Of a stretch of DNA of 12,598 bases, positions 199 to 12,598 are shown one piece after another. The position numbers and the translations under genes were made by a program. Positions within the stretch are counted from its first letter, which is position 1. Every line of letters starts with the position of its first letter. Origin of the DNA: Promethearchaeota archaeon. Lineage in GTDB: Archaea > Asgardarchaeota > Lokiarchaeia > Sigyniarchaeales > SOKP01. Under the pieces are notes generated by a model. It was not told the DNA's origin. It ran no database searches and was given only the letters and a program-made list of their open reading frames with translations. The stretch spans positions 1 to 12,598 of the forward strand of contig JBHLNZ010000083.1 in NCBI GenBank assembly GCA_048941015.1, read 5' to 3'.

Positions 199-651
199 TT
201 AAGAAACCACTAACACCGGAATTGGAGATAGATTAATAATCCGTTCCGTGATGTGACCAGTTATATATGATGGACTCCGTTGTTTACCCCTTACCGGTAT
301 AACTATTAAATCATGGAGAGGGGCAACTTTTAATATCTCATCAACAGGCTCACCAAAAACAATTTTAAAATCGATATTATTCTCATTGAATCCCAAATTT
401 ATGGCACCTTGAATAGCTCTATTACAAAACTTTTCACCTTGTTCATAATATGTTTGTTTGAGCTTTTCTGAATTTTCATTTTGATATAAAACAAGATGAT
501 TTATTTTATCTTCATCTATTACATGGAGAAGTAAAAGTGAGCAATCTTCAAATACTGAAGCAAATCTTGTAGAATAATTAACAGCATTAATACTGCCTTT
601 AGATCCATCAATAGGGATTAAAATTTTTTTATAATTAAGTTTTGGAATCAT
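199..651 (-). CDS. Universal stress protein (UspA family), single domain
   Basis: 150 aa with YKKILIPIDGS at the N-terminus, GEPVDEIL, DLIVI and PIPVLVV at the C-terminus, all typical of Usp domains. Confidence 0.93.
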   Translation of the reverse strand: MIPKLNYKKILIPIDGSKGSINAVNYSTRFASVFEDCSLLLLHVIDEDKINHLVLYQNENSEKLKQTYYEQGEKFCNRAIQGAINLGFNENNIDFKIVFGEPVDEILKVAPLHDLIVIPVRGKQRSPSYITGHITERIINLSPIPVLVVS

Positions 652-698
652 TTTTACACAAATCGAAATATATAATCAAATCTATCAATCTTTCTCAA

Positions 699-713
699 TT
701 TTAAAGTTTTATT
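699..713 (-). promoter_or_regulatory. Possible BRE/TATA promoter for the USP gene
   Basis: Minus strand reads AATAAAAC-TTTAAAA about 48 nt upstream of the USP ATG, in a 158-bp intergenic gap. Weak evidence because the background is very AT-rich. Confidence 0.3.
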
Positions 714-809
714 ACTCGAAAAATATAATTTAAAATTAAGTCAATATTCAAAAATTACATTAGTCTAGATTGTTGATTCTCAATTAAATTAAAATTTATT
801 GAACGAATT

Positions 810-2645
810 TTAGGCTTTTTTCAATCTTGGAGCTTTAAATAATAAGTTTAAACAGTTTTGAACAACTTCATTTTTCATTTCACCAATTTTCTTGAACTTG
901 ATATTTGATATTGAAAAATTGATCTCTTGAATGATTTTAATAACAGTATCAAAATTCTCTTCAGTGAAAAAATAATTTTTACGTAATAGAATTGTCCCTT
1001 CTTCGTAAATTGTAAGTATAAGGTTTATTAAAAATAACAGCTTTTTATAATCGGTAAACTGATCCCTCTCATCATATGAATTTTGGATTAAAAAGCAATT
1101 TCTTATTAGCTTTGCAAAAAGTAAATCAAATTTTTGAACATCAATTAAGTCTAATTCACCCGTTAACTGAGCAGTTAATTTGAGTTCGTTTTCTTTCGAA
1201 AGTATTTTATTTACTTTTTCACGAGATTCATACCAACTAATATCAATTAAATTAAACTCTGAATCTTTCTCTTTCCACCACTTTAGAACGCTTTCTGAAT
1301 AATTAGAATATGAATTAAGCCAATCTATCGCAGGATAATGCTTTAAATATGCTAAACGAGGATCTAATGCCCAAATTCCTTGAACTAATCGTTTTGATGC
1401 TGCGGTAACAGGTTCATTAAAGTCACCTCCAGGTGGAGATATCGAACTAATAATTGTAAGAGAACCAGTCTTACTTCCGCTTTCAATATTTTTTCCCAAT
1501 GGTTTAATTACTCCAGCCCGTTCATAAAAACTTGAAAGTTTAGATGGTAAATATGCAGGATACCCTTCTTCGGCGGGCATTTCTTCTAAGAGGCTTGATA
1601 TTTCTCTTAAAGATTCTGCCCATCTTGAGGTACTATCTGCAATAACTGCAACATCATAGCCCATATCACGGTAATATTCAGCAATCGTGACTCCTGAAAA
1701 AAGGCTTGCTTCACGCGCAGAAACAGGCATATTTGAGGTATTAACAATCATAATAACATGATCTAAGATTGGAAGATTATTTTCAGGATTAATTGTTTCA
1801 GAAAATTGCTTTAAAACATTTGCAATTTCGTTACCAGGTTCTCCACATCCAATAAAGACAACAATATCTGCATTACAATATTTTGCTATACTTTCTTGAA
1901 TAACAGTTTTACCTGTACCAAACCCTCCCGGTATTGCTATTGTACCTCCTTTTGCTACAGGAAATAGTAAGTCGATTGTGCGTATTCCAGTAAATAATGG
2001 CTCAAATGGATCTAACTTTTTCCGAAAGGCTCTCGATTGAGTTATTGGGGCTTTTTGTAACATACAAAATGATTTCTCTTCATCATTTCTTTTCAATCGA
2101 TAGATCTCATCAATAATAGTATAATCCCCTTCTTCGGCTATATGAGTAAGCTTTCCTGAATAATTATGAGGTACTAATATTCTATGTTCAATTTCAGGTG
2201 TTTCTTGAACAATTCCAATAATATCACCTTCTTCTATTTGACTATTGATAGATCTGACTGGTTTAAAATGCCATAGTTTCTTACGAGAGAGTGGTTGAAA
2301 CTCAATTCCCCTTTTTAACTCTTCTTCTTGAAATTTGTAATATGTTTCCTCTAGAGGTCTCTGAATTCCATCAAATATATGGGATAACAGACCAGGAGCT
2401 AGTTCCATCGATAAAGGTTCATGCAAATTAATAACTTCTTCATTTAATTTTAAGTTAAACGTGCTTTCAAAACATTGGGCTACTACATAATCTTTATGAA
2501 TTTGAATAATTTCACTCAAAATATTATATTTTGGGATTTTAATTAAATCAAACAATCTTGATTGATTACCTAATCCTTTAACTTCAATTAAGGAGCCAAA
2601 AATTGCTGAGATATGTCCAACCGAATATTTGTTATTAGATACCAT
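810..2645 (-). CDS. atpA: A/V-type ATP synthase subunit A, second divergent paralog (A2), possibly catalytically impaired
   Basis: 611 aa, intact and colinear with the 7478..9313 copy. Has [11 protein letters not shown], Walker [24 protein letters not shown], Walker B region [22 protein letters not shown] and FYERAG, but GCGEPGNE instead of GCGERGNE. Confidence 0.95.
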   Translation of the reverse strand: MVSNNKYSVGHISAIFGSLIEVKGLGNQSRLFDLIKIPKYNILSEIIQIHKDYVVAQCFESTFNLKLNEEVINLHEPLSMELAPGLLSHIFDGIQRPLEETYYKFQEEELKRGIEFQPLSRKKLWHFKPVRSINSQIEEGDIIGIVQETPEIEHRILVPHNYSGKLTHIAEEGDYTIIDEIYRLKRNDEEKSFCMLQKAPITQSRAFRKKLDPFEPLFTGIRTIDLLFPVAKGGTIAIPGGFGTGKTVIQESIAKYCNADIVVFIGCGEPGNEIANVLKQFSETINPENNLPILDHVIMIVNTSNMPVSAREASLFSGVTIAEYYRDMGYDVAVIADSTSRWAESLREISSLLEEMPAEEGYPAYLPSKLSSFYERAGVIKPLGKNIESGSKTGSLTIISSISPPGGDFNEPVTAASKRLVQGIWALDPRLAYLKHYPAIDWLNSYSNYSESVLKWWKEKDSEFNLIDISWYESREKVNKILSKENELKLTAQLTGELDLIDVQKFDLLFAKLIRNCFLIQNSYDERDQFTDYKKLLFLINLILTIYEEGTILLRKNYFFTEENFDTVIKIIQEINFSISNIKFKKIGEMKNEVVQNCLNLLFKAPRLKKA

Positions 2646-2691
2646 TATTCTTGCTAAATAGACTTGGTTTCAATTCATTTCAATTAAATAT

Positions 2692-3099
2692 TTAGGTAAC
2701 TATTTTTTCTCCACAATTAGGACATGTTTTTACGAAGTTCGCTAACTCCATCCCACAATTAGGACATTTTCGAATAATAGGTTTACGATACTTTGAATTA
2801 AGCTTAACATAATCTACTCTTCTTATTCGGGGCTTATTAGATTTAATTTCTTTATATTGACTTGTAGAATCCTGATCTTTTTTATGTATAAATCTGGAGA
2901 AGAAAGATATCCCTTTTCTTCTAAATAAAACACCTAAAAAAAGTAAAAAGCAAAATATGAGAATTAAAATAGCAACGAACGGAGGACTTCCTAAGTCTAT
3001 TAATACCCAATAAAAAAAATAGAGCACCACACAAAAAATTATTAGTAGGATTATTCTAATTGTAAAATATTTCCGCAACGATTTTTTTTGACTTTGCAT
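2692..3099 (-). CDS. Small membrane protein: two N-terminal TM helices, basic linker, C-terminal zinc ribbon
   Basis: 135 aa with hydrophobic stretches IILLIIFCVVLYFFYWVLI and FVAILILIFCFLLFLGVLF, a Lys/Arg-rich linker, and CPNCG-x9-CPNCG at the C-terminus. Confidence 0.85.
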   Translation of the reverse strand: MQSQKKSLRKYFTIRIILLIIFCVVLYFFYWVLIDLGSPPFVAILILIFCFLLFLGVLFRRKGISFFSRFIHKKDQDSTSQYKEIKSNKPRIRRVDYVKLNSKYRKPIIRKCPNCGMELANFVKTCPNCGEKIVT

Positions 3100-3129
3100 C
3101 GTATTTTACCAATTTAATAACAATACTAA

Positions 3130-5421
3130 TTATAGAAAATTTTTAGATATATAATTTCTTGCGTTTTCAAGATTCATTCTTGTTTCTTCAGTCTCAATCT
3201 CTTTCTCTATTTCAGATGTAATTATATCCTTTCTTGCTTCAAATTCAAAATTTATAGAAGAAAATTTTCCCTCTAATATAAAAGGTATAAATTCTGTACC
3301 ACGTCCCTCATAAAATTTGAAAAAGAATTCATAAAAATGCAATCTTAAGGCGTTTAAAAAGACTAATACTCCTTCTATGAGAATAACAACAATATTTCCA
3401 AAGATTAAACTGATTACCACAATAATTTGTACAAATATTCCTTCACCTGGAATAACTGAAACCATTGCCGTAATTGCAAGCATTAACGAAACATGCGCTA
3501 GTGCTAAAGCCATTAAACGAATATACGAAAGCACATTACTAGGGATCGATAATACAGTTTCAAAAGTATCCATAGTACCGTCTCCAATCAATTGTCCATA
3601 AGTAGATGCTCTTAAATATGAAATTCTTAATATTTTTCCTATTGGTTTAAAAAGAATCAATAAGATACCAGGTATTAATGGGAGAAGTATAGGGGGAAAA
3701 GGAGGGGCTAACCAAGCATTAAAATCAAAACGATAACGCATTACTAGATAAACGATTGCATCTAAGAAGAAAATTTTCGTTAGGGACTCTGTTATAGATA
3801 AGAATTTTCTTGATTGTTTCCAATAATTGATAAACTGGAGTATCCATCCTAAATTAATTTGAATGACTCCAACAAAAATCGTAAAAAAAAGAACTGTTAC
3901 TACATTTCCTAAAGGATTATATAATATAATTGAACCGACGAAAGGAATGGGGATGGGTATAGGATTTAAAGGATGCCCAAAAAATTCCTCTGTGCCAAAA
4001 AATTCTCCATAAAATAATCCTCCTAAAACAGCCCACCAACCACACCAAAAAATAATCCAAGAGAAATTATATATACCGCCTCCTCGTTTCCTAAAAATTA
4101 TTGCGCCAATAAGTCCAGAAATTATTAAAACTAAACCGTGTCCCATATCTCCGAACATTATTCCAAAGAATAAAGGAAAAGTAAAGAACAAAAAAGGAGT
4201 TGGATCAATTTCAGAATAAGAAGGAGTTCCATACATCTTTGTTAAAGTCTCAAAAGGTCTAAAGAGCCAATTATGAGTCATTTTTGTGGGAGTTTCTCTT
4301 TTCAAACTATCCCATTTTTCTACTTTTTCATCACTACTATCTTGAAGCTTATTATCTAGGTCGATTACTTTATTATCTATTTTATAGATGTGATCACGTT
4401 CTAGCTTTTTATCTTTTGTTAAAATTCCTTTTTTCCCTATATTTATTACCTCAATTGTGATATCAGTACCAAATTCGCTGATTAATTTTTGATAAGCATT
4501 TTTTTTCTGAGATTGAAGAATAAAAAACCTATAACTCAATCTATCTAATGATAATTCTTCAAATTGACTAGCTGCCCAATTAAACTCCTCTAAATTTGAA
4601 ATACTTTCATAAATTGCAGCAAATTTTAAAATATTATCTGATTTTATCCGCTTAATTTCTTTTTCATATTTTTCCAAATAGTTCTCTAGAAGTGCAATTT
4701 CATTATTAATTCGATCATGATTTATTCCATTGGAAGAAAGAAACTTTTTTAAGATTGGAACTTCTTCACCGTGAATAAGACTAATTTTTTCTCTTAATTT
4801 AGTTTCTTGATCTTTTGGATAAATTATGAAAAATGCAGTTCTATCAGTAGAGATATTTTGCACTTGTATAATACTTGGAAACTCATAAAAATCAAAAATC
4901 GATTTTAAGGTTCCAATATTTTTTGAAAAAGTCGTATAAGTTTTAAAATTAAAGTAAGTTAATTTTGTCAAGTTTTCTCGTGTTAAATTATATTTCTCAA
5001 GGAAGTCATAAGTTTTATCTATAATTTTAATCTTTTCTAATTCGATTTTTGTATCTGAAATATATTTATCTAATTCATTATACCGATTTGTATAGAAATT
5101 AATTTCTTCAATTAAGTAGTCTATTAACTCATGTGAATTTTTAGCGGTATATTTTTTTTTTTCTTTTTCTTTAACTTTTAAGAATTGAAAATCATTTTCT
5201 GTTATATCAAGTTTTTTAAATAAAATGTTTAAATTTAAGCTCAAGCTTTTCAGCTTTTCCTTATATACTTCTTCCGCTTCTGTAATTTGTGTAGATTGAT
5301 ATTCTTGTTTCGATTTAATATGTGCTCCTTTTATTTCTGCTAAAGTTGCTAAAAATATGTCTTTATATCTTCTGTCTAAACTTACCTTAAACAAGCACAT
5401 ATTATTACTTAATTTTACCAT
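3130..5421 (-). CDS. atpI: A/V-type ATP synthase subunit I (a), membrane stator and ion channel
   Basis: 763 aa with a soluble coiled-coil N-half, then PT...PFETLTKMYGTPSYSEIDPT, FFGIMFGDMGHGL, the essential Arg in SYIRLMALALAH (R635, codon 3517-3519), and LRLHFYEFFFKFYEGRG. Confidence 0.97.
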   Translation of the reverse strand: MVKLSNNMCLFKVSLDRRYKDIFLATLAEIKGAHIKSKQEYQSTQITEAEEVYKEKLKSLSLNLNILFKKLDITENDFQFLKVKEKEKKKYTAKNSHELIDYLIEEINFYTNRYNELDKYISDTKIELEKIKIIDKTYDFLEKYNLTRENLTKLTYFNFKTYTTFSKNIGTLKSIFDFYEFPSIIQVQNISTDRTAFFIIYPKDQETKLREKISLIHGEEVPILKKFLSSNGINHDRINNEIALLENYLEKYEKEIKRIKSDNILKFAAIYESISNLEEFNWAASQFEELSLDRLSYRFFILQSQKKNAYQKLISEFGTDITIEVINIGKKGILTKDKKLERDHIYKIDNKVIDLDNKLQDSSDEKVEKWDSLKRETPTKMTHNWLFRPFETLTKMYGTPSYSEIDPTPFLFFTFPLFFGIMFGDMGHGLVLIISGLIGAIIFRKRGGGIYNFSWIIFWCGWWAVLGGLFYGEFFGTEEFFGHPLNPIPIPIPFVGSIILYNPLGNVVTVLFFTIFVGVIQINLGWILQFINYWKQSRKFLSITESLTKIFFLDAIVYLVMRYRFDFNAWLAPPFPPILLPLIPGILLILFKPIGKILRISYLRASTYGQLIGDGTMDTFETVLSIPSNVLSYIRLMALALAHVSLMLAITAMVSVIPGEGIFVQIIVVISLIFGNIVVILIEGVLVFLNALRLHFYEFFFKFYEGRGTEFIPFILEGKFSSINFEFEARKDIITSEIEKEIETEETRMNLENARNYISKNFL

Positions 5422-7477: not shown

Positions 7478-9313
7478 TCAAATGCTTCTATACGGTATTT
7501 TTAATTCGCTTATTTCTTCTAATAATTTTTTCTTTAGATCTTCAATTTTTTCGAATTTATCATTTGGAATAGAACTACTTATTCTTAAAATATCATTTAC
7601 AATATTAAGTTCTCTTATTTCTTCAATAATTATTCTTTGGTGTAATAATTCTTTTGCTTCTTTATAAAACAATAGAATCAATTTTATCTGTCCCATTAAC
7701 TTTTTCGCATTTGTATAATTATCTATTGAATCAAAGGCATTTTGTATTAAAAATCCTTCTTTAATTAGTTTAGCACAAAAAAGAATTAATTGTTGATCTT
7801 CTGGTAGGTTTTCTTCACCAATTAATTGAGTAATATTTCTTAAATTATTTTCAGTAGATAAAATTTCGTTTACTTGGTTTCTACATTCTTCCCAATTTAA
7901 TTCTAATTCTGGCCACCTAATATCTCTTTGATTCCACCATTGAGAAACATATTCAGGATAATTAGAATATGAATCTAGCCAATTTAGTGCGGGATAATGT
8001 TTTGCATAAGCTAATCTTGCATCTAAAGCCCAAAATGCTTGAACAAAGCGCTTAGTAGTAGCTGTTACTGGCTCACTAAAATCTCCTGAAGGAGGGGATA
8101 CTGATCCAATAATAGTTAAAGATCCTGCTTTTCTTTTTCTGAGATTATTACTGCCTAAAATATCAACGACACCTGCTCTTTCATAAAAGCTAGATAGTTT
8201 AGAGGGTAAATATGCTGGATATCCTTCTTCAGCAGGCATTTCTTCTAATAATCCAGATATTTCTCTCAATGATTCTGCCCATCTTGAAGTGCTATCAGCC
8301 ATTAACGCTACATCATATCCCATATCTCTATAATATTCTGCTATCGTTATTCCTGAGAATATGCTTGCTTCTCGAGCAGATACAGGCATATTCGAAGTAT
8401 TTGCTATTAGCACAACTCGTTCTAATAAGGGGCGTTGTGTTCTTGGATCAGTAAGTTTTGAAAATTCTTTTAAGCTATCTGCAATTTCATTTCCTCTTTC
8501 TCCACAGCCTACAAAAATAATGATATTAGCATCACACCATTTTGCAAGAGCTTGTTGAATCACAGTTTTACCAGTCCCAAAACCTCCTGGAACAGCAACA
8601 GTTCCACCCTTTGCTACAGGAAAAAGTAAATCTATTACACGGGTTCCCGTAATTAGAGGTTCAATCGGACTAGTCTTTTTTTTAAATGGTCTACTTCTGG
8701 TAACTGGCCATTTTTGTATCATATTAAATACTTTTTCTTTTCCATCATGTTTCAGTGTATAAATCTTGTCTATGATGGTATAATCTCCCTCTTCAACAAG
8801 AGAAGTTAAAATTCCAGATTCTTTTGGAGGTATCATTATATAATGCTTTATTAAAGGAGTTTCTTGAACAACCCCAACAACATCTCCTCCATGAAGGTTA
8901 GCATTTTTCTTTTGTAAAGGTGTAAAGTGCCATTTCTTTGTCCGCGATAGAGAAGGTAAATCTTTTCCTCTCTCTATGAAACTCTGATTATCCATTTCTG
9001 AAAAAAGTGTTTTTAATGGTCTTTGAATTCCATCAAATATACTTGAGAGTAATCCTGGAGCCAATTCCATAGATAATGGTTCTTTTAAATCAATTACACT
9101 TTCATAGAGCTTTAAATTGCTTGTATCTTCAAAAGATTGGACAATAATTCTATCTGTATAAATTTGAATAACTTCACCTAGAATATTCAAATTAGAAATC
9201 CTGATTAAATCATGAAGTTTAATATCATGTTCTAAACCTTTAACTTCGATTATAGAACCATTTATCATCGAGATATATCCAGTATGTTCCTGATTCATTT
9301 TAGATTTAATCAT
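7478..9313 (-). CDS. atpA: A/V-type ATP synthase catalytic subunit A (A1, canonical copy)
   Basis: Walker [11 protein letters not shown], intact [45 protein letters not shown] and FLIQNAF. Sits between E and B with no intein-sized insertion. Alternative ATG at 9298. Confidence 0.98.
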
Positions 9314-10693: not shown

Positions 10694-11743
10694 TTATTTT
10701 AATTCTAAAATTGTAAATTTTTTATTTATAATATTTACTATATTTGGTATAATTTCTCTTTTAATTTCTTTTTCTTTCTTAATTATCAATTCTAATATCT
10801 TATAAATTGTTTGATATTCAATATCATCCATTTTCATTCTAAATTTTCTAAAATAATATTCTTGAAAAATTCTCTCAAGTTCCCATATCGGATGCTCAGA
10901 ATTAGAAAGATTGCCTATGTATTTTAATTCCACAATAGGCCTAAACAAATCATCGATAGTTAAAAAAAAATCATTTAAATTATTTTGGTTCAAGAGCAAA
11001 TCGATTTTATTTTCATCTAAAAATAAAAAGTAATTAACAATAAATTGACTCAATAATTGTTTATCGATATTATTTGTTATACCCCGATAAATTAAATTAA
11101 TATTATAAATTTCTGCTTTGTATCTATTAAATAAACTTATCATCTCTCTTTCTTTTACATTATATATCTTTTCTCTCTGAATCATGGTTATATAATATAA
11201 TTGATCTAAAAAAGCCTCAAGAACAAAAATTTCGTTTTTATTTTTAAAGTAAAGTAACCCTTCTCTAATTGCTTTATTATACTTTGTTGGCTTCATATAT
11301 AGTTGTATACCTTGTAATGTAGAAATTTCTATTAATTTATTTATAAATTCGGTATTTTCTAAATATTTTTCAATTAACATGTTAACATTTTTTAGCTTTT
11401 CTTCAGTATTCATCCCTATAATTAACCCTAGAATGATTTCTTTTATATTCATAATCTCATATTTCATTAAGTAATCTTTAAGAAAACGTCTCATATTTAA
11501 AGGTGAAATAAAAATTATTTTTCCAATAAGCTTAAAAAACACTATGTATAACGCTTTTTCAATTTCTTCAATTGAATATTTAGTAATTTTTAAATTAGGA
11601 TAATAAGGAGCTAAAACAGTTAAATAATCTTCAATATCTATTATATCTTTAAGTTTTTTTAAAGTATTATCATCAATTATTAATTGCTTCAAAAATCCTA
11701 TCCTTATAAAAGTGTATGCATAAGCTGGAACTGGTATACTCGT
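10694..11743 (-). CDS. atpC: A/V-type ATP synthase subunit C (d); extended upstream of the ORF-track TTG (11692), putative ACG start
   Basis: C-family motifs KYEIMNIKEII, LEAFLDQLYY and EIYNINLIYRG. The frame stays open upstream of 11692 and encodes SIPVPAYAYTFIRIGF-LKQLI, resembling the conserved YxYxxARxxxMxxxLL N-terminus. In-frame TAG at 11756-11758. Identity is secure; the exact start is not. Confidence 0.88.
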   Translation of the reverse strand, partial: TSIPVPAYAYTFIRIGFLKQLIIDDNTLKKLKDIIDIEDYLTVLAPYYPNLKITKYSIEEIEKALYIVFFKLIGKIIFISPLNMRRFLKDYLMKYEIMNIKEIILGLIIGMNTEEKLKNVNMLIEKYLENTEFINKLIEISTLQGIQLYMKPTKYNKAIREGLLYFKNKNEIFVLEAFLDQLYYITMIQREKIYNVKEREMISLFNRYKAEIYNINLIYRGITNNIDKQLLSQFIVNYFLFLDENKIDLLLNQNNLNDFFLTIDDLFRPIVELKYIGNLSNSEHPIWELERIFQEYYFRKFRMKMDDIEYQTIYKILELIIKKEKEIKREIIPNIVNIINKKFTILELK

Positions 11744-11791
11744 TGAAAGGTCACCCTACTCTAAGGTTAATTATTTATTAAAGGAAATAAT

Positions 11792-12364: not shown

Positions 12365-12598
12365 TTATTGATATAAAAGAAGTCTTATCACATCAGCGAT
12401 ATCATGTATCCGATCTGCAAGTTGTTCTAATAAAACAATACTGTCTCTTAAACGTAAGAGCAATCTAATATTTAGATCCTGCTCGGATGTTGAATATAAA
12501 TAGTCAAGAAATTGCCTATATGTTTTATCAATGTGATTCTCGAGTTCGTGGATAGAAACAGTATTTTTATAAACTTCATCTGGATTGTCTCTTAAGTT
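12365..12598 (-). CDS. DUF47 / PhoU-like phosphate transport regulator family protein, C-terminal part (5' truncated by window edge)
   Basis: Not in the ORF track. The frame is open from 12598: NLRDNPDEVYKNTVSIHELENHIDKTYRQFLDYLYSTSEQDLNIRLLLRLRDSIVLLEQLADRIHDIADVIRLLLYQ*. The LExxxD and LExxADxxxDxAD helical motifs are typical of DUF47. Confidence 0.82.
   Translation of the reverse strand, partial: NLRDNPDEVYKNTVSIHELENHIDKTYRQFLDYLYSTSEQDLNIRLLLRLRDSIVLLEQLADRIHDIADVIRLLLYQ

Follow-up and report, generated by a model that had tools for sequence, protein, structure and literature searches.

A zinc-ribbon membrane protein, an arginine-to-proline paralogue of catalytic subunit A and a universal stress protein encoded behind the ATP synthase operon of a Loki-type Asgard archaeon

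The DNA analysed here, referred to below as the window, is a whole contig of 12,598 nucleotides (12.6 kb) from a metagenome-assembled genome of a Promethearchaeota (Loki-type Asgard) archaeon, a low-GC genome of 3.59 Mb (95% complete, roughly 28% GC) whose close relatives are titled Promethearchaeota. Every gene of the window lies on the minus strand, and Pfam gives their order on that strand as a PhoU-like fragment, K/c-C-H-F-E-A-B-D-I, a gene for a zinc-ribbon protein (ZnR), a second A-type subunit gene (A2) and a gene for a universal stress protein (USP). Upstream of ZnR, Pfam identifies K/c, C, F, E, A, B, D and I together with a 103-amino acid coiled coil bearing a weak G/H-like match, and the nine-subunit A1Ao set is thus complete ahead of ZnR. 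The source genome has a single B gene and two genes of the A type, the latter both on this contig; ZnR, A2 and USP thus stand at the 3' end of what is the archaeon's only operon for a rotary ATP synthase. The initial annotation had described ZnR, A2 and USP as a tail on the atpI strand, separated by gaps of 30, 46 and 158 nt, following an already complete standard set and including an altered, proline-type A2; the open reading frame (ORF) coordinates, the Pfam matches and the alignment of A2 with A agree with this description. The principal features, all on the minus strand, are:

3130..5421, minus strand: atpI, encoding subunit I/a, 763 amino acids, the last of the nine standard genes (PF01496, E 4e-35)
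3100..3129, minus strand: atpI-ZnR spacer, 30 nt, with a partial Shine-Dalgarno-like GGTAA about 8 nt ahead of the ATG (sequence read)
2692..3099, minus strand: ZnR, 135 amino acids (translation; PF13240, 27.3 bits)
2646..2691, minus strand: ZnR-A2 spacer, 46 nt, AT-rich (sequence read)
810..2645, minus strand: A2, a 611-amino acid paralogue of catalytic subunit A (four A-subunit Pfam domains; 57% identity to A)
652..809, minus strand: A2-USP spacer, 158 nt (sequence read)
199..651, minus strand: USP, 150 amino acids (PF00582, 61 bits)
7478..9313, minus strand: canonical catalytic subunit A, with GERGNE, the parent of A2 (Pfam, alignment)

A2 resembles a complete catalytic subunit. The four domains of subunit A, namely the N-terminal beta-barrel, the barrel-sandwich insert (PF16886), the nucleotide-binding domain (PF00006) and the C-terminal domain (PF22919), all score above their cut-offs, the P-loop GGFGTGKT is intact (DNA 1905-1928), and this P-loop and the catalytic glutamate (GCGE) are kept in all 14 A2 sequences of one alignment. 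The difference lies in the motif that follows the glutamate, where GCGERGNE of A becomes GCGEPGNE in the A2 of the window. In an alignment covering two families, the GER position was arginine in 41 of 41 A sequences and proline in 30 of 30 A2 sequences, and only two columns were fixed differently between the two sets, R273P and I318L (numbering of the window A). The corresponding codons of the window A2 are:

1836..1838, minus strand: codon of Pro270 of A2, GERGNE to GEPGNE (alignment)
1701..1703, minus strand: codon of Leu315 of A2, REASIF to REASLF (alignment)

All four proline codons (CCA, CCT, CCG and CCC) are used at this position among the A2 genes. In one relative (G256; L290 1695-3506) the motif reads CCGEPGSE, with the proline kept and its flanks changed, so that a DNA pattern built on GCGEPGNE undercounts A2. 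The Walker-B segment is intact apart from a threonine-to-isoleucine change (DSTSRWA to DSISRWA) in about half of the copies. This threonine, Thr342 in the numbering of the window A, stands beside the Walker-B aspartate and is invariant in A; its replacement may point to relaxed constraint around the phosphate pocket of A2. The ratio of nonsynonymous to synonymous substitution rates (dN/dS) was 0.10-0.28 for A2 compared with 0.06-0.15 for A, and the conservation of A2 parallels that of A domain by domain, which indicates that A2 is under strong purifying selection. A decaying pseudogene is ruled out by the intact ORFs, by these dN/dS values and by the invariance of the proline despite its four codons.

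In an alignment to structures in the Protein Data Bank (PDB), the A2 proline aligns with Arg264 of P. horikoshii A, which is the GER arginine and is equivalent to Arg262 of E. hirae A. We take beta-Arg-182 of F1 to be the counterpart of this arginine. In E. hirae A the gamma-phosphate is contacted by this residue, by the lysine of the P-loop and by B's arginine finger (PMC5095293). Replacement of beta-Arg-182 by glutamine or lysine in E. coli F1 abolished Pi binding and ATP synthesis and left the ATPase activity low and MgADP binding unaffected, and the residue is required for the transition state (PMC3268026). By analogy, with the arginine that holds the gamma-phosphate and Pi absent, the A2 site is predicted to bind nucleotide but hardly to catalyse.

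The GCGEPGNE pattern was found in the DNA of 75 of 400 Asgard genomes, with one match in each, and all of these belong to the family of the source genome (f1), where 74 of 134 genomes plus the source genome carry it, which amounts to at least 55% of the family. The same pattern gave no GEP-type A among the 266 Asgard genomes outside f1, and a reversed-pattern control gave zero matches. Among 80 fetched pattern matches on metagenome contigs, 53 were A-like genes on low-GC, Loki-like DNA; the remaining 27 were chance matches in high-GC DNA without an A gene. A2 lies directly after ZnR in 31 of 31 annotated genome loci and, with coordinates compared by eye, in 41 further genomes, and ZnR precedes A2 in all 36 metagenomic A2 loci with upstream sequence. 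In four loci ZnR is instead followed by a convergent tRNA-intron endonuclease gene that elsewhere lies 3' of A2; this junction marks a clean difference in the presence or absence of A2 at one site. The A2 sequences form one clade, since the tree constrained in this way was 8.5 log-likelihood units (lnL) better than a free quick search (p-AU 0.63, approximately unbiased test), and the branching of A2 mirrors that of A and nests within the radiation of A in f1. Acquisition of A2 from outside the family is ruled out by this nesting and mirrored branching. When an atpI tree stands in for the species tree, a deep branch of f1 already has A2, and at least five changes of state are needed, probably one gain with several losses. 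Taken together, the trees identify A2 as the product of one old duplication of this lineage's A gene near the base of the family.

ZnR is built from a basic N-terminus, a hairpin of two membrane helices (residues about 8-35 and 40-72), a lysine- and arginine-rich linker and a C4 zinc ribbon formed by Cys112, Cys115, Cys126 and Cys129 (CPNCG-x9-CPNCG; DNA about 2713-2766). Zinc-ribbon models are the sole Pfam matches of the window protein, with PF13240 (Zn_Ribbon_1) scoring 27.3 bits against a cut-off of 25 on the CxxC-x(9-10)-CxxC knuckle pair, and all 16 aligned family members match a zinc-ribbon Pfam model. An AlphaFold model from the 16-sequence alignment placed the hairpin at a per-residue confidence (pLDDT) of 88-96 and the linker at about 50, followed by a small ribbon. 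Residues Y104, C112, C115, K124, C126 and C129 are invariant in the family alignment, and dN/dS values of 0.11-0.53 indicate purifying selection. Because the hairpin is flanked by basic residues on both sides, we infer from the positive-inside rule that both termini of ZnR are cytoplasmic and that the ribbon would be held on a flexible basic tether.

Comparison with known proteins gave little. No similarity of ZnR to known rotary-ATPase subunits or assembly factors was detectable by PDB profile, Pfam or Foldseek searches. The closest V-ATPase small subunit and assembly factor in the PDB profile search, subunit e (E 2.3) and VPH2 (E 6.5), were not significant; a two-helix hairpin offers little signal for such searches, and ZnR may yet be a functional analogue of e/f or of Vma21/VPH2. 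Foldseek with the model returned only generic zinc ribbons (E at least 0.6), and an ESM Atlas search returned only generic zinc ribbons and a cluster of ZnR's own, unnamed. Separately, the ZnR profile aligned with residues 11-141 of the human palmitoyltransferase DHHC20 (E 1.3e-5), a stretch running from TM1 through TM2 and the linker to the first CxxC...CxxC of the Cys-rich domain. The DHHC motif of these enzymes lies in that domain, between TM2 and TM3; ZnR ends ahead of it and has two transmembrane helices rather than four, the profile matched no DHHC chain besides DHHC20, and PF01529 is absent from the listed Pfam matches of ZnR, so it does not qualify as a DHHC palmitoyltransferase. The resemblance could be due to chance or to a distant link and, being of some interest in an Asgard archaeon, is mentioned here as a lead.

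Considerably more than 100 genomes from families f1, f2 and f4 of the order contain a full-length match to the ZnR profile, typically one each. Beyond the order the profile gave only weak, ribbon-sized matches and two unlinked look-alikes, none better than 6e-11, and among 1.84 billion representative proteins only about 100 fell below 1e-10, mostly full-length at 120-180 amino acids. Apart from genus g5 and one genome described below, ZnR follows atpI in all annotated loci whose contig continues, with over 60 cases in total, including 20 loci of the source genus, 16 from five other genera and 18 of 19 loci picked for having no GEP pattern; the same arrangement is seen in several f2 loci, single-contig genomes among them, and in one f4 locus. 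The gap to atpI is mostly 10-50 nt. In genus g5 of family f2, ZnR lies at the operon start, between the PhoU-like gene and atpK:

L152 2872-3315: ZnR of g5, between the PhoU-like gene and atpK
L153 11043-11504: ZnR of g5, between the PhoU-like gene and atpK

Since ZnR has shifted in g5 and yet is still in the operon, a functional tie is better supported than it would be by inherited adjacency alone. Among the three families that share this linkage, subunit A has an identity of only about 50%. ZnR is thus linked to the ATP synthase operon order-wide and essentially constantly.

The USP of the window scores 61 bits with PF00582 (cut-off 24) and its orthologs score 80-85 bits. It is one of five USP genes in the source genome. 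Its ortholog (E 1e-18 or better) was found in only 13 of 135 f1 genomes, in 12 of which it lies directly behind the operon on the same strand: after A2 in six (the source genome, G022, G245, G246, G237 and G256) and after ZnR, without A2, in the other six (G179, G277, G279, G178, G282 and G192), with gaps to the preceding gene of 37 to about 210 nt. The notion of USP as a chance neighbour was revised on the strength of these 12 genomes. In the atpI tree most USP-bearing loci fall within a single clade, and this clade includes both ZnR-USP and ZnR-A2-USP arrangements. The orthologs align well with each other, and by eye read RGKKH-x7-GHVT, which compared with G-x2-G-x9-G-(S/T), the nucleotide-binding motif of ATP-binding USPs of the UspFG/MJ0577 type, lacks the first glycine and has histidine for Ser/Thr. 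The divergent A-type operon of family f4 has the order D-USP-I in two genera, and in G033 the USP begins one base past the stop codon of D:

L048 11621-12091 (G031): USP between atpD and atpI
L306 8511-8993 (G033): USP between atpD and atpI

In the window, T5 runs occur twice in the spacer between A2 and USP (at 750-754 and at 719-723), which also has AT-rich, TATA-like stretches such as TTATATAT at 668-675, and oligo-T runs are also found behind A2 in relatives; a separate USP transcript is plausible on these features.

We favour, with moderate confidence, a reading in which the tail holds three separate extras: ZnR as an accessory Ao subunit or assembly factor, A2 as a crippled head subunit that restrains the enzyme, and USP as an optional neighbour that senses nucleotides. 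ZnR would most likely serve the membrane (Ao) sector, as an accessory subunit or as an assembly factor specific to this lineage. A2 retains all the fold and interface constraints of A and, because there is a single B gene, should form pairs with B and so become part of the A3B3 head. With A2 in place, the head would slow down or stall when hydrolysing ATP and would yield fewer ATP per turn, so that A2 could serve as a built-in restraint on the enzyme. USP, an optional gene that a minority of lineages keep behind the operon, may act as a regulator that senses nucleotides. A bolder version, a 'gear and brake' that we consider distinctly unlikely, would have A2 in at least one of the three catalytic sites, where it blocks ATP-driven reverse rotation and, by cutting the ATP yield of each rotor turn, raises the ion-to-ATP ratio, with ZnR as a true tenth subunit and USP tuning the enzyme to the nucleotide state. 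If that were true, energy-starved Asgard archaea of sediments could go on making ATP even though their ion-motive force is very low.

Several points weigh against the restraint proposed for A2 and against a role for ZnR in the enzyme. The ZnR-A2 spacer of the window shows no clear ribosome-binding or promoter motif when read, so that no ribosome-binding site is evident for A2; in relatives these spacers measure roughly 20-90 nt by eye, and some contain GGTGA-like motifs. Codon usage, taken as a proxy for expression, did not differ between A and A2 (p 0.2). A2 is absent from about 40% of f1 genomes, including near-complete ones and one of a pair of sister species (G020 vs G018), and is therefore dispensable. 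F1 with alanine at other key catalytic residues still rotates, slowly (PMC5380711), and A2 sites may thus be very slow rather than dead. As to ZnR, the lack of detectable similarity to known subunits and assembly factors counts here, as does one genome (G194; L287) with a ZnR match and zero ATPase genes inside 3.5 kb. Conserved adjacency can also be plain inheritance, as the unrelated tRNA endonuclease and Memo-like genes are stable neighbours too.

The initial annotation went further than the reading favoured here and tentatively joined the three genes into one dedicated stress-control module, with ZnR as membrane anchor or adaptor, A2 as a dominant-negative head subunit and USP as stress sensor. 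We regard this as very improbable. Such a module would fit the location of the three genes on one strand directly behind the operon, the rarity with which the USP ortholog is found anywhere else, and the I-ZnR-A2-USP order shared with the five other genomes in which USP follows A2. All three genes occur together, however, in only 6 of 135 f1 genomes. ZnR is found without A2 across f2 and in about 40% of f1, A2 is mostly without USP, and USP is found equally with A2 (6) and without it (6). On the atpI tree USP, like A2, changes at least five times with no coupling between the two, and among five independent A2 contrasts the state of USP differs in fewer than one on average. In the window, moreover, the 158-nt spacer with its T-runs parts A2 from USP. 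The genes have a nested spread, ZnR order-wide, A2 in one family at 55% or more and USP in about 10% of f1. As A2 and USP have been gained or lost independently while ZnR is constant, the tail is best described as three separate accretions, and an obligate three-part module is not supported. Co-distribution among relatives, whose absence the initial annotation had named as refuting its module, was therefore not found; what holds is that the operon has gained ZnR and A2 as conserved members and that A2 has lost a catalytic arginine. The USP link, which it had called the weakest, proves to be a neighbourhood that recurs, both at the operon end and in the D-USP-I order of f4. Extra, probably regulatory, parts on the synthase are a reasonable idea for each gene singly, in which dominant-negative action, a membrane-adaptor role and stress control would be candidate functions.

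The remaining alternatives concern single genes. A2 could be a working alternative catalytic isoform with altered kinetics or another nucleotide or ion-load optimum, swapped in under some conditions in the manner of V-ATPase isoenzymes; the remaining catalytic motifs are all intact, purifying selection is nearly as strong as on A, and rotary motors withstand single catalytic-site substitutions (PMC5380711). We hold this to be possible but doubtful, since F1 cannot bind Pi, reach the transition state or synthesize ATP without the homologous arginine (PMC3268026), the residue is invariant in all 41 A sequences, and a kinetic shift would not be expected to fix precisely the GER arginine and almost nothing more. 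A role for A2 outside the ATP synthase, as a nucleotide-binding protein acting alone or tethered by ZnR at the membrane and kept in the operon for co-expression only, would suit a gene that always lies directly behind ZnR and is dispensable in many relatives. It is improbable in view of the ring-subunit conservation seen in all domains, with no clade-specific surface changes and only the two fixed differences; besides, ZnR is much older than A2, and ZnR proteins with and without A2 showed no obvious difference by eye in the loci examined. ZnR itself, finally, could be a hitch-hiker, a generic membrane zinc-ribbon protein whose function has nothing to do with the ATP synthase. Proteins of this kind are common, and the missing similarity to ATPase subunits and the match apart from ATPase genes in L287 would be explained. 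Against this, the linkage holds in three families with A subunits as divergent as stated above and survives the shift from operon end to operon start, the gaps to atpI are mostly 10-50 nt, and a genome has one full-length copy, so that we think a hitch-hiker unlikely.

Rotary ATP synthases are among the most conserved of molecular machines, and the head is always given as three catalytic and three non-catalytic subunits. Small accessory membrane subunits are otherwise known mainly from eukaryotic V-ATPases. In a search of the literature for an Asgard ATP synthase zinc-ribbon protein or a paralogue of A, nothing relevant was found, and no paper describing ZnR or A2 came up; a preprint of 2026 about the evolution of rotary ATPases remarks on the unusual operon order of Promethearchaeota, never mentions zinc, and has its passages on paralogs and duplication on other subunits. 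If the restraining role favoured here is correct, A2 would be a naturally selected third kind of head subunit and a new way to regulate the enzyme or to alter its coupling ratio, found in the archaeal group closest to eukaryotes and living near the thermodynamic limit. It would replay, in a young and tractable form, the ancient loss of catalysis by alpha and B. ZnR, for its part, would give the prokaryotic A-type enzyme a lineage-specific membrane subunit or assembly factor.

Some further features of the operon and its surroundings were recorded. Two of them lie in the upstream part of the window:

12365-12598, minus strand: PhoU/DUF47-like gene, 5' end cut off (Pfam)
10694-11758, minus strand: atpC

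A PhoU/DUF47-like gene of 211-226 amino acids adjoins atpK upstream in most f1 and f2 loci, a full-length example being L023 3477-4133, and a PhoU-like protein of the phosphate-signalling type beside the ATP synthase operon may be another regulatory link. Subunit A lengths of 1131 amino acids (L153 4523-7918, genome G034) and 858 amino acids (metagenome locus L235) suggest intein insertions in atpA, and the ORF starts of relatives' C, D and E genes differ in length. Cluster c8, a 494-amino acid ORF with no Pfam match (L032 2345-3829 and homologues), lies behind A2 or USP in loci of G024, G010, G203, G256, G277, G282 and G192. A sigma-70 promoter scan gave 18 sites against 17.5 expected and a hairpin-terminator scan gave zero, both being uninformative for an archaeon.

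Each of the three genes has partial counterparts among known systems. TeaD of the Halomonas TeaABC TRAP transporter is an operon-encoded USP regulator, and the USP described here resembles it as a single-domain protein whose gene closes a membrane-transport operon or lies within it, although it is present in only about 10% of f1 genomes. We know of no USP that acts on a rotary ATPase. Small hairpin-type proteins tied to the membrane sector include AtpI/UncI and AtpZ of F-type enzymes, AtpQ/AtpR of N-type enzymes, and e, f and Vma21 of V-ATPases; none belongs to the catalytic core, and several help to assemble the c-ring. Unlike these, ZnR carries a cytoplasmic C4 ribbon on a basic tether of roughly 40 residues, and has no significant sequence or fold match to them. 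The proposed outcome of A2, restraint of wasteful ATP hydrolysis, is that of bacterial epsilon, mitochondrial IF1 and the alpha-proteobacterial zeta subunit. Those inhibitors are small, have no sequence relation to A2 and work by jamming the interface of rotor and stator, whereas A2 would act inside the ring as a defective catalytic subunit. The beta-R182Q and R182K mutants of E. coli F1 change the same GER residue as A2 (PMC3268026), but are laboratory mutants of an F-type enzyme altered at all three sites, whereas A2 is natural, selected and encoded beside a wild-type copy. With the catalytic A subunits of A/V-type enzymes (P. horikoshii 1VDZ/3M4Y, E. hirae NtpA 3VR4 and T. thermophilus 3W3A) A2 aligns end to end (E 1e-150) and has in common the four domains, the P-loop, the catalytic glutamate, Walker B and the non-homologous insert; it differs in the proline that replaces the phosphate-binding GER arginine in every A2 and in being a second copy at the far operon end. 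A further parallel is offered by F1 alpha and A/V subunit B, paralogues of the catalytic subunit that occupy the same hexamer and may bind nucleotide but are non-catalytic. Alpha and B are ancient and obligatory and alternate with the catalytic subunit, whereas A2 is family-specific and dispensable, has a single catalytic residue changed relative to A and would vie with A for the same positions in the ring. A2 would have taken the evolutionary route of alpha and B as the third example, and a much younger one.

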